Below, piece after piece: positions 1-50,881 of a stretch of DNA of 64,000 bases. Made by a program: the position numbers and the translations under genes. Origin of the DNA: an uncultured Hormoscilla sp. (lineage in GTDB: Bacteria > Cyanobacteriota > Cyanobacteriia > Cyanobacteriales > Desertifilaceae); assembly GCA_963921275.4 (NCBI GenBank), contig OZ001293.3:960001-1024000 (forward strand), in the 5' to 3' direction. The first letter of the stretch is position 1. Every line of letters starts with the position of its first letter. The notes beneath the pieces were generated by a model. It saw nothing but the letters and a program-made list of their open reading frames with translations, had not been told where the DNA came from and ran no database searches.

Positions 1-566
1 CCCGCGTCAGCATGTCGAGGCATCCTAACCTATTCCTCAACGTATCCATAGGCATTACCCTAGGCTTTAGCTTCTCGGGCTATCTCTCCCCTCATCGCTT
101 CCGCTTTACATCTAACTTGTTCCACCATTGGCAGAACAGCGTACAAGAGGTTACTTCGTTCCCTATTATCATTTCACGATGCTTTTAGGTCCCTGCTATA
201 TCCCGGGAGTTCTTCGAGTGCGATGCTAGTCACGAACTAATACTAGCACTAACTACCATTTCCCTTTTGGGCCAGCGTTTAAGCCTTATTCCGCTGGTTT
301 ATGTTTACGAGACTTGCACAGGTTCGCTTGTTCTAACCATGAGCATCTTTCCTAGTGGCGTCACCGGTTCAGGCTACCAGCTATCCTACATTTAAGTCCT
401 TGCTTCGCACCACGGCGATGTGACTCCGCAGCACTAAGGACCGGTAGTACCCTCGACCCCCCACACCTGGGGAGAGGGAATTTAACCCCCATGAATACCA
501 GAGTTACCAGTTTGGACCTGGCCTAGCGTTCCGTATTTGTCTACATTAGGCTAGAACGAATCGCAC
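1..566 (-). mobile_element. Group II intron, 5' part (continues beyond the left edge), inserted in sense orientation in a methyltransferase gene
   Basis: Minus strand begins GTGCGATTCGTTCTAG at 566 and is colinear with the introns at 3168 and 31745. Putative EBS1 AGTTCG pairs with the flanking exon end CGGACT. Confidence 0.9.
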
Positions 567-718
567 AGTCCGCTACCACAACCCAAGTCTAGCACTAAAC
601 CGTCCCGAATTTGGTGACGTTCTAGGATTTCCAGTATCCCGGGAGCAGATTTCAGAGCGTAATCGCTGAAACCGACATCGTGAATATACGCGAGTTCTTC
701 TTTGTACCACTCTTCCAT
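567..718 (-). CDS. Class I SAM-dependent methyltransferase, 5' exon only
   Basis: MEEWYKEELAYIHDVGF...VLDLGCGSGL (SAM motif I) runs directly into the intron 5' end; the remainder lies outside the window. Confidence 0.8.
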
Positions 719-825
719 AGGGTTTTGTACTCGATCGCAAGTTTTCTCCATAGTAGCACGTCAATGATATCATATAAACCAGGCAACGAATAGCGAAACC
801 TGGTTTTTGGGATCCTTCAAGTAGA

Positions 826-1213
826 TTATGGAATAAAAATTCGCCTTGCACCCATGTAGTTCTCAATGTCCATTGCTATTTCAATCAGGCGATCGACTAT
901 TTTGGTAATCCCGTTCATAAAGTCTATCTACATTTCCAATTGTAACTACGGGGAGTGAAGTTAGCGTATTTTCTTCCCGCAACACTTGTTCGAGGGAGTC
1001 TTCTCCTTTCATCTTGCGATTCCCTGTCAGTAAAATCATCTGATTCTCTTGAGCAAAACGCCAAACTATGCGATCGTTACTATTGATTGGCATTTTTACC
1101 TCTTCAAAAGTAATAAAACGAATCGGCAATAAATCAAGCCAGCCTTCAGCCGCAATATTACCCAAAAGGATCAGGGCATGACCCTCAATATTATGGTCGA
1201 TGAGAAAAATCAT
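826..1213 (-). pseudogene. DUF5615-like PIN-fold toxin-type protein, frameshifted near 900
   Basis: MIFLIDHNIEG...D..VWRFAQENQMILLTGNR; the C-terminus IVDRLIEIAMDIENYMGARRIFIP* is in another frame. It sits downstream of a DUF433 gene. Confidence 0.6.
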
Positions 1214-47971: not shown

Positions 47972-48040
47972 AAAGTCGCGCAGCGTTCGAGGAACGAAGC
48001 AATCTCAACTTTTAGCAACTACAACATTGGCGTCAGAGAT

Positions 48041-50429
48041 ATTAAACTAAGCCAGAGGGTCACCCCTCCGACTCGTCTCCAAAACCGGACTTGATACTTT
48101 CGCATCATCCGGCTCCTCAGTAACGCCACCCTTGTCATGGGTACGGCTGTGACTACCATCGCTGGCAGTCTTTATATCGTGGCAATGTTTGTGTAGTAAC
48201 TGTAGGTTGTCGTACTAGTTTTTACCCCCTAATGAGAGGGGCTTGATATGGTCAACTTCCCACTTGTCACCATCCATAAACGTTAATCCGCATTGTTGGC
48301 ACTTTCCTTTTTGTCTCTTGAGTAGCGTTGCTACCCTCTTATTTAGCTCGGGGCTTTTGCCTAATCTCGTACTCCAATATGTAAGGTTCCCGTCATATGG
48401 GCTTGCTGTACCTTTCACTTTTATGTGCCTGATTATCTCAGTTTCGGAGTGTCTGTACAGCGTTATTTCTTCCTCTCCTATTTGGCACCGGAATCGCCAT
48501 TTACCGTCCTCACTCAGGGACCAGTACTTACGAGCTATCCAATGACTGGATTTATTGGGATGTCTCCTTTTTGCCCACTGCCAGAGAATGGTCCATAGGT
48601 AGTGGTCCATGTAGCTGTATGTTTCTTTACTTACCACTGTCCTATAATAGTTTGACCATCCCCGTATTATCGGGTTTAGCTTACTTATTAAGGCTGCTTG
48701 TGGTGCTGCTTTATGGCTGGCCACCATTTCTGATAGCCGTTCTTTATGCTTCCCTATGGACTTATTACTGGGTTTGATTAGGGTTTTGAATCCTAGGGGT
48801 GTTCCGTTGGTTGACTTGCCGGTTCTGTATTTACCTATCTCATATTGCCTTACTTTGAAACCCAGGAAGTCAAACCCCGGGCTTTCTCCTTTTAGCGTAT
48901 GAGCTATTTTTGTCTTCTCGGCTTTCAATTCTAGCCCTATTCCCTTTAGCCATTCTGCCACCACTATCTGCGCTCTGTCTATCATTCCCCTATCTTCATG
49001 CATTACCACAAAGTCATCAGCATACCTGACTACTGTCAGCTTTTGCTTTTCTTTTTGTGTCCTGGCGAGTTCCTTTACTGCCTCCTCTAGTCCATGTAGG
49101 GCTATGTTGGCTAGTAGTGGTGATATGACTCCCCCTTGGGGTGTTCCCGCTTCGGTTGCATGCCATTCTCCTTTGTCTATCACCCCGGCTTTTAACCATG
49201 CCCGTATCTGCTTACGGATTGGTGACGTTGTATTTAATTTTTTTATTAGCGCTTTGTGGTCAATCTTATCGAAACATTTTGCAATATCGGCATCCAATAC
49301 CCACTTGGGTTTATATCTGATGCTGTTAAATATTGCCTTGATTGCATCGTGGCATCCCCGACCCGGTCTGAATCCATAGGAGTTCCCTTCCATGTACGCT
49401 TCCCATTCGGGTTCGAGCGCAATCTTGAAAAGTCCCTGTGTCGCACGGTCGTACATCGTTGGTATTCCTAAAGGACGCTTCTCCTCTCTCCCCGGCTTTG
49501 GTATCCATACACGACGTGTAGGTTTGGCCTTGTTTGAGATTTCAATCCGTCCTACCAGTTCTGAGCGTTGCTTTGGGGTCAGTGCTTTTACACCGTCCAC
49601 TCCCGCCGTCTTCTTTCCCTGGTTGTCTTGAGTTACCTGTCGTACCGCTAGACTTTTGGCAGCCCGGGATTTTACCAGTAACCTTTGGAGTCTGCGAACT
49701 GGTCGCTTATTACGCCTTCCATTGCCGCTCTGTAAATTCGCTTTTGCAACTTAAAGACTACCCGCTCCAGCCGAGGCCAGGGGGTATCCTTCCATTCATT
49801 CATCGATTCGGAAATCGTGCTCATGACCTGTGTATTGCTACTTACAACTTTACAATTAACGTTACCGTGAGGGCGTCTGCATATCCTATCCATTACAGAC
49901 AGGCGTTGGCTTCTCCTCAAAATCTTTCCCAGATACAACCTGCCTTCCGAAGAGCAGATGTTGCGCCTGTGGTGGCTACTCAACCTATCGACCGGTGGTT
50001 GAGAGTATGTACCTGGTTTACTTCGTTCCTCTAGATGATTGGTCGTAGTTTTAGGTGGACTCTATATGCCGGGTTTGTTGTCAGTGCTTATTGGTCGAAT
50101 TACAACCGCCAATGACCTGTATCCTTTCCCTTTTGGGCCAGCGTATCAGCCTTTTCGCTGGTTTGGTATAACGACACTTATGAGCCTTTGCTTTTGCTCA
50201 CCATGACTACTTGCTTGACGGTAACCGGTTTAAGCTGCCAGTTATTGCGCCTTCTCTCCCGCTTTACGGATTGATGCCATCGCTACCGTCGGAAGAGTGC
50301 TGTCACTCCTGCACCTGGAGGGGTGGGCTTTCACCACCATCATCTAAAAGTTGTCAGGGCTAATGGAACCCTGCTAGTGGTCCCCTTTCTTGACCTGTGT
50401 CAAGTCAGTTTACAATAAACAAATCGCAC
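48041..50429 (-). mobile_element. Full-length group II intron with inactivated RT/maturase/HNH ORF
   Basis: 5' GTGCGATTTG at 50429; domain V GAGCCGGATGATGCGAAAGTATCAAGTCCGGTTT; 3' end TTTAAT at 48041; EBS1 TGTAATT pairs with exon AATTACA. Confidence 0.95.
48047..49824 (-). pseudogene. Group II intron RT/maturase; frameshift ~49712 and TAG at 48215 inside the HNH domain
   Basis: GKKTAGVDG, RPLGIPT..DR, SYGFRPGR, GTPQGGVISPLLANIALH, RYADD, FDFLGF, C..CG...EVDHI...GGKN*YDNLQLLH.HCHD. Confidence 0.93.
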
Positions 50430-50881
50430 TGTAATTATACCATCATATGCGTCAAAGGCGATCGCCTGCAATGCTCTCAACATATTATTGAGAGCGCGTT
50501 TTTCGTGCGGCATTGCACATTTTGGGGATGATGCCCTTTTTTGCACCAGCAAAACGCTACTGAAAATGGCTTGTAGTCTAAGTTTGAGAGTTCTGCAACT
50601 ATCTCCATCATCCCGTCGGAAGTGCAACGCCTTTCGTGCTATGTACTTTTTACCTCTTTTTCCTCTCCTGACAATGGGACCGCCGATGTGACGCTCGCAC
50701 ATCATCTCCGGAGTGGCACCAAGATTATGCGTTGTTTGAAAGCCTTGGTGCAAGCATAATTTGCCCGATGTCTCCAAGACTTTTTTTATTCTATACTCGC
50801 AAAGGGATTGCGCTGCGCGCACACGGCTGCGCCTACGCGAACGACTTGCGCTTTTTGCGGCTATTGAATGTGTCATTGCTT

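Follow-up and report, generated by a model that had tools for sequence, protein, structure and literature searches.

A 64,000-nt stretch of contig OZ001293.3 from an uncultured Hormoscilla sp. (assembly GCA_963921275.4, positions 960,001 to 1,024,000; hereafter the window) carries five group II introns with four different exon-binding site 1 (EBS1) loops, the loop of each intron resembling the complement of the intron-binding site (IBS1) that ends its own 5′ exon. The locus raises the question of whether these loops are guides that selected the sites, or whether intron and exon came to match by some other route, and of how introns without an open reading frame (ORF) could move. Our answer is that the window introns very probably belong to a swarm of mobile IIB, chloroplast-like (CL) group II introns that extends through the whole genome, aimed by their guides and divided into two lineages, of which the ORF-less one (A-type) would borrow a reverse transcriptase (RT).

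Boundaries of the window introns were set by reading the sequence and by profile searches. An ORF-less A-type intron of 865 nt is represented by its 5′ part only (1-566, minus strand), its 3′ end lying past the window start; EBS1 AGTTCG (238-233) pairs with IBS1 CGGACT (572-567) at 6/6 positions, one of them G-U. Two 835-nt ORF-less A-type introns belong to a family with EBS1 TGCACT. The first (3168-4002, plus strand) sets this loop (3489-3494) against GGCGCA (3162-3167) at 5/6 and carries EBS2a T at 3420, EBS2 TCTAG at 3422-3426 and EBS3 T at 3529; the second (34590-35424, minus) sets it (35103-35098) against AATGTA (35430-35425), again at 5/6. In the AGACTC family, an ORF-less A-type intron of 871 nt (31745-32615, plus) pairs AGACTC (32068-32073) with GGTTCT (31739-31744) at 5/6. 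The RT-encoding intron, 2389 nt long (48041-50429, minus), is of the other lineage (B-type). Its EBS1 TGTAAT (50104-50099) faces ATTACA (50435-50430), or 7/7 when read as TGTAATT against AATTACA. Its EBS2, TACCA within gtcgTTATACCAaacc, matches IBS2 TGGTA at exon positions -13 to -9, and a longer reading, TTATACCA against TGGTATAA, gives 8/8 pairs.

The motif CCCAAAAGGGAAA occurs without mismatch at 259-271 (minus), 3456-3468 (plus), 35124-35136 (minus) and 50125-50137 (minus), and with two mismatches at 32035-32047 (plus), in each case inside an intron; a sixth match, also with two mismatches (9326-9338), is unrelated. Group II domain V (Rfam RF00029) matches five times in the window, in each case above the gathering cut-off: at 3924-4001 (plus; the domain V of the 3168 intron), 32537-32613 (plus), 34591-34668 (minus), 48041-48117 (minus) and 54666-54744 (minus). 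The loops, 5′-exon flanks and pairing counts given for the five introns in the initial annotation proved correct in every case on re-reading, and its observation that EBS1 loops differ between introns, each matched to its own site, is real and genome-wide. Its list of introns overlooked two truncated pieces: an A-type 3′ fragment from about intron position 548 to the 3′ end ...CGACCCCTAAT (54668-54994, minus) and, beginning 2 nt after it, a 5′-truncated A-type intron that picks up at around position 238-244 of domain I and runs to the 3′ end (54074-54665, minus).

The loop taken for EBS1 in that annotation is indeed the terminal loop of a conserved 8-bp stem: any given pair is present in 43-46 of the 46 A-type class representatives. 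Compensatory changes occur in the stem, and variability within the region is highest in the loop columns. RNAfold recovered this terminal loop unreliably from single sequences. An automatic hairpin-loop finder mis-called the B-type loop (it still scored 4.93 against 3.90 ± 0.075, reached by 0 of 2000 shuffles), and structure-anchored rules were used instead. Domain I is near-complete in 410 introns, and a fixed structural register assigned EBS1 in 382 of them. Removal of copies sharing both flank and loop left 337 unique sites in 79 EBS1 classes (46 A-type and 33 B-type), with no 6-mer common to the two types and a separate EBS2 accompanying each of the 79 6-mers. Against the last six exon nucleotides, the class mean is 5.17 of 6 Watson-Crick or G-U pairs. 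Label shuffles gave 2.56 ± 0.12, with 0 of 5000 reaching the observed value, and sliding the flank by 1-4 nt gave 2.39-2.71, so the asserted complementarity stands well clear of shuffled pairings. Site by site, 148 of the 337 pair at 6/6, 138 at 5/6, 30 at 4/6 and 21 at three positions or fewer; among the 49 singleton classes, 29 pair at 6/6 and 13 at 5/6.

The remaining guides each match their own flank position as well. EBS2, defined as the 5 nt between CGTNA and AACCAG, was tested on an earlier BLAST-based set (226 unique sites, 32 classes) and forms 3.75 of 5 pairs with positions -13 to -9, as compared to 2.03 ± 0.17 in shuffles (0 of 5000 reaching it) and 1.58-2.24 in slid registers. In 65 of 78 classes, EBS2a, the middle one of the three nucleotides preceding EBS2, is Watson-Crick complementary to the base at exon position -14; shuffles gave 24.8 ± 3.9 with a maximum of 38 (0 of 5000 reaching 65), and control positions 18-33 of 78. 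For EBS3, a single domain I column (represented by T3529 of the 3168 intron) forms a Watson-Crick pair with +1 in 35 of 39 A-type classes, as compared to 24 for the next-best column. EBS3-IBS3 (in the A-type) and EBS2a-IBS2a are both features of subgroup IIB.

This layout follows the EBS2a-IBS2a rule described for EcI5 and the IIB1/IIB2 introns, in which three nucleotides lie between the helix and EBS2, the middle one pairs with -14 and an A stands on its 3′ side (Monachello et al. 2021, PMC8643678, in the portions available to us). Those portions report the pair as required for DNA integration and dispensable for splicing. That the ORF-less lineage has this pair thus speaks for a role in choosing targets. 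Unlike for EcI5, the evidence here is comparative only, and in the two big families only about half of the sites have a Watson-Crick pair at this position.

Other positions near the guides and intron ends also show patterns. An A at exon position -15 is enriched (0.72 and 0.64 in the two big families) without covarying with EBS2a (33 of 78 classes); it may be recognised by protein, as with the A-15 reported for TeI4h. The A-type 3′ ends vary after GACCCC (ATCC, GACT, GACC, GGCT or TAAT, including the window ends at 4002, 32615 and 34590), and in 37 of 39 classes a single internal column covaries with the terminal base, a candidate γ-γ′ pair. Tail positions -2 and -4 seemed to covary with columns next to them, which is probably a composition effect. 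The A at 8 nt from the 3′ end, in ...CTCGACCCC plus 4 nt, is a putative domain VI branch point. Rfam at permissive thresholds returned no domain I-IV family match for either A-type or B-type.

Genome-wide counts were taken from the whole assembly (G000; 7.03 Mb, main contig 47.4% G+C). A domain I profile gave 549 matches, 472 of which begin at the first bases of an intron; these ends read GTGCG in 466 cases and GTGTG in 4, in line with the GUGYG hallmark of group II introns. A domain V-domain VI profile located 495 intron 3′ ends. Pairing of the two sets yielded 432 complete introns covering 471,338 bp, or 6.7% of the genome, counts that rest on our own profiles and regular-expression anchors and are not directly comparable with published pipelines. 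About 335 of the complete introns measure 700-1000 nt and 31 measure 2300-2500 nt, the remainder being composites. A BLAST census seeded by the five window introns (309 5′ ends; 659 intervals, 494 kb) had undercounted, missing families with different first 60 nt, and was replaced by the profile searches. Three of the four congeners compared (G001-G004) hold 220-252 first-look intron candidates each, figures that are not copy numbers.

Many copies are young. The AGACTC family comprises 139 complete copies, 60 of them identical to the modal copy, and the TGCACT family 70, of which 20 are identical to theirs. For 23 occupied sites an exact 36-nt empty paralogous site exists, always at offset 0 among the five offsets tried. 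At these sites, and at the empty 35424 site of G003, insertion is exact and without target-site duplication. Insertions in the window are lineage-specific: the frame at 31745 is uninterrupted in 4/4 congeners, the 35424 site is empty in 4/4 (base-exactly in G003), the 3168 site is empty in G001 and the site of the RT intron at 50429 is empty in G003 and G004. The initial description of a family on the move agrees with all of these data. None of the contigs from four sequencing runs joins across the 35424 intron site. A 23-nt direct repeat with a short palindrome flanks the 3168 intron (3140-3162 and 4004-4026; 16 occurrences in the genome); considered as a target duplication, it turned out to be an older tandem repeat that is present at the empty site of G001 too. 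In three public runs under other organism labels (X5-X7), the region 34000-36100 is found with the TGCACT intron at 99.9% identity, exact flanks and a depth of 2-4. Judging from these reads, the same or a very close organism appears to be present there at low abundance, and the runs are thus uninformative on horizontal spread.

The young copies also reveal how loosely sites are chosen. Copies that match the modal AGACTC intron in every base occupy 48 unique sites, where EBS1 pairs at 6/6 in 17, 5/6 in 26 and 4/6 in 5, and only one site reaches 11/11 over EBS1 and EBS2 together. Since the copies are identical, the mismatches were already there at insertion, and the tolerance for mismatches initially proposed is borne out. 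Between classes, guide loops differ at 0.67-0.70 per site, near saturation, even at a backbone divergence of only 4-9%. Together with the 79 EBS1 6-mers and their own EBS2 partners, this supports natural retargeting of the family, the route of which would be a cycle where guides change after ectopic insertion.

The swarm contains two ribozyme lineages. A-type introns end in GACCCC plus 4 nt, are about 800-900 nt long and carry an ORF in no copy, including at least 305 complete copies of up to 1000 nt; the family is thus non-autonomous, as first suggested. B-type introns end in GGCTTAGTTTAAT, are about 2.4 kb long (29 copies at 2300-2450 nt) and carry an RT/maturase/HNH gene. Alignment of A-type with the B-type window intron by blastn gave stretches of 35-131 nt only, at 71-83% identity.

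The initial annotation suggested a search for an intact cognate RT. The copy in the window is broken: the ORF of the 50429 intron (48215-49600, minus) matches RVT_1, GIIM and positions 1-28 of 47 of the HNH profile, with its RT-0 N-terminus in another frame and a TAG stop inside the HNH motif. Full-length RT ORFs do exist elsewhere: 15 of 87 long-intron rows, representing 13 distinct ORFs, encode 588-596 aa with YADD. The genome holds 87 RVT_1 matches in all. TIGR04416 scores 333-355 bits on the RT (cut-off 300), and among solved structures the T. elongatus maturase RT 6ME0_C comes closest (E 4e-108), aligned over the RT, thumb, D and HNH regions; the closest relatives in the genome collection are from Hormoscilla sp.

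From the 13 full-length RT ORFs and the recency of the ORF-less copies, we infer that RT is supplied in trans to the A-type, where recognition of A-type RNA by a B-type RT is an assumption. The A-type could instead be independent of the B-type RTs, either using another RT or being immobile now and spliced with the help of a maturase. The short alignable stretches between the two ribozymes and the lack of a common EBS1 6-mer would fit such independence, as would at least one other RT-like frame, at G000:C1:1776194-1776871, where RVT_1 scores 96.9 bits in a 600-aa open frame. This score is far below the other RVT_1 scores, and the match is probably to a different RT class. We regard independence as unlikely. 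The guide layout is common to A and B (EBS2a position, a 5-nt EBS2 with -13 to -9, a 6-nt EBS1), twintrons show A-type introns homing into B-type ones, and present immobility is countered by the identical copies and the empty congener sites.

With RT supply in trans, the swarm would operate as follows. Each intron RNA, presumably active in splicing, carries about 13 guide nucleotides in domain I: 6 in the EBS1 hairpin loop, 5 in EBS2 and 1 each in EBS2a and EBS3, pairing with DNA target positions -6 to -1, -13 to -9, -14 and +1, respectively. Bound by the RT/maturase, the spliced RNA would reverse-splice into a matching site and be copied to DNA, giving base-exact insertion without target duplication. 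The B-type, at about 2.4 kb, encodes the RT/X/D/HNH protein, and the A-type, at about 800-900 nt and having lost any ORF it had, would need to borrow it. Repeated rounds of insertion at imperfect sites and subsequent change of the guide loop could have produced the roughly 79 specificities. The AGACTC and TGCACT A-type families have recently burst to 139 and 70 complete copies.

A second alternative reverses this order: complementarity would arise mainly after insertion, with a more or less random landing of introns and a later adaptation of guide loops or exons for splicing. The near-saturation of guide loops between closely related backbones and the very good pairing of singleton classes (29 of 49 at 6/6) are in keeping with such adaptation, and some compensatory change after ectopic insertion is in any case the route we propose for guide drift. 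As the main source of the complementarity, however, adaptation is improbable. Copies identical over 835-871 nt occupy 18 (TGCACT) and 48 (AGACTC) sites resembling one consensus target per family (AGTGCA with CTAGA, and GAGTCT with CCTTA), and the shared guide must therefore be older than the sites. Covariation at -14 is seen in 65 of 78 classes, for a pair that the available portions of the EcI5 study report as dispensable for splicing (PMC8643678).

Placement of the introns points the same way. We compared 314 unique ORF-less sites with 3000 random positions with respect to open frames of at least 120 codons. No such frame crosses 162/314 ORF-less sites (random, 1072/3000), while 90/314 lie inside one in sense (random, 968/3000) and 62/314 in antisense orientation (random, 960/3000). 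Selection for splicing of host mRNA cannot act at the 162 frameless and 62 antisense sites. In the window, the 566 intron lies in sense orientation within a 258-codon open frame; the 3168 intron is intergenic, on the plus strand just downstream of, and antisense to, an SDR gene (4027-4995, minus); the antisense 31745 intron splits a 595-codon open frame (30782-33494, minus) that has no match in Pfam; and the 35424 intron is inserted in the stop codon (TA|A) of a 165-aa ORF (35424-35921, minus).

Passive multiplication, by segmental duplication or by riding in insertion sequences and other repeats rather than by retromobility, is suggested by 19 recurrent 25-nt flanks spanning 66 introns (two recur 9 times each), by the 58 of 472 5′ ends that lie within another intron (36 on the same strand) and by composite twintrons of one structure that occur about 8-9 times, but as a general explanation it is scarcely credible, for flanks are unique in 337 of 382 assigned copies, boundaries are base-exact at the 23 empty paralogous sites and short guide-complementary motifs are all that the flanks share. 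Nesting also takes another form: at G000:C1:361407-363237 a TGCACT intron sits in the antisense strand of the EBS1 loop of another copy. DNA complementary to the EBS1 of this family reads as its own IBS1, and the family thus targets itself on the opposite strand.

Several results weigh against a guided swarm fed in trans. Pairing is poor at the 21 of 337 sites with three or fewer EBS1 pairs, the big families reach just 3.6-3.8 of 5 for EBS2, and among A-type sites with U as EBS2a, IBS2a is Watson-Crick at 136 of 242 only. The tests themselves left out 28 of 410 introns for EBS1 (stem mutated or anchor mislocated) and 19 of 410 for EBS2a. A flank and loop are shared with another copy in 45 of 382 assigned introns, which probably travelled with other repeats or duplications instead of inserting independently. 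The 62 antisense insertions in frames cannot be spliced from the host mRNA. On the enzyme side, the two ribozymes are distant from one another, the window's own RT is broken, and several full-length RT ORFs (e.g., G000:C1:4777196, 5054161 and 5481304) read EVDQI instead of EVDHI, with Gln for the first HNH His, so that the endonuclease of these copies may be inactive.

Hormoscilla is a sponge associate that is not known to be a thermophile, unlike Thermosynechococcus elongatus, which the initial annotation aptly cited as a precedent. The proliferation in Hormoscilla is of the T. elongatus type, at about 15 times the copy number. In the parts of Mohr, Ghanem and Lambowitz (2010, PMC2882425) available to us, T. 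elongatus is described as carrying 28 introns (TeI3/TeI4) in six EBS families together with twintrons; 17 of them are ORF-less introns from one deletion, and their trans-mobilisation was demonstrated by assay. The same parts tie this proliferation, the one well-studied bacterial case, to high temperature. On that description, in both genomes cyanobacterial IIB/CL-type introns have proliferated within one genome, an ORF-less majority stands beside a few RT-encoding copies, EBS families match their flanks, twintrons form and insertion into other repeats takes place (here 36 same-strand nested 5′ ends and 19 recurrent flanks). The intron-encoded proteins share RT, X, D and endonuclease (En) domains, the T. 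elongatus enzyme being the best solved relative here.

The differences, again as far as the available parts of that paper go, lie in scale and in ancestry. Complete introns number 432 here as compared to 28, and EBS1 specificities 79 as compared to six families. Whereas in T. elongatus a single ORF deletion left a near-identical ribozyme, the ORF-less ribozyme here barely aligns with the RT-bearing one, and derivation from a co-resident ORF intron by one deletion was tested here and not found. Further unlike T. elongatus, the A-type ends in ATCC, GACT, GACC and the like.

Another filamentous cyanobacterium with a heavy load of CL-type group II introns is Arthrospira platensis. Its 101 introns are the highest number among 1,790 representative bacterial genomes in the survey of Miura et al. 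(2022, PMC8919778), the available passages of which also report an increase of ORF-less introns in some genomes and contain nothing on guide diversification. The 432 complete introns counted here and the 101 of A. platensis were obtained by different methods and are not strictly comparable. A search of the literature available to us returned no paper on Hormoscilla introns. Cyanobacterial relatives of these introns may be tabulated in the supplements of the papers cited here.

Other features of the window and assembly lie apart from the introns. Very large ORFs, including ones of 853, 1143 and 1153 aa, follow one another on the same strand over a long stretch (10553-33494, minus) and give only a weak CNH match in Pfam; the gene that the 31745 intron splits comes first in this series. 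There is a single Rfam CRISPR-DR28 match at 21184-21207. Just upstream of the 5′ exon of the RT intron, an element of about 120 bp (50509-50631) has dozens of copies at 80-98% identity in three congeners and looks like a small repeat or a miniature inverted-repeat transposable element (MITE). Contig C3 of the assembly (31,420 bp) has 17.6% G+C, against 42-49% for all other contigs; it could be a replicon of foreign origin or a contamination.

Spliceosomal introns and non-long-terminal-repeat (non-LTR) retroelements presumably descend from group II introns, and how the latter could flood a genome is an old question, for which Hormoscilla offers more than 430 copies with the youngest at mismatched sites. 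The hundreds of natural target-guide pairs could yield targeting and mismatch rules for IIB introns used as gene-targeting tools, and the two lineages provide a directly testable pair of non-autonomous and autonomous introns. It is quite possible, though we would not yet call it probable, that this genome, and probably the genus, holds the largest bacterial group II intron expansion seen so far, with one small RT lineage supporting a strongly diverged ORF-less one in the manner of long and short interspersed nuclear elements (LINEs and SINEs), with the ORF-less lineage spread over hundreds of sites of imperfect match and with about 79 working 13-nt guides. If so, these introns would be a live model for introns overrunning a genome.

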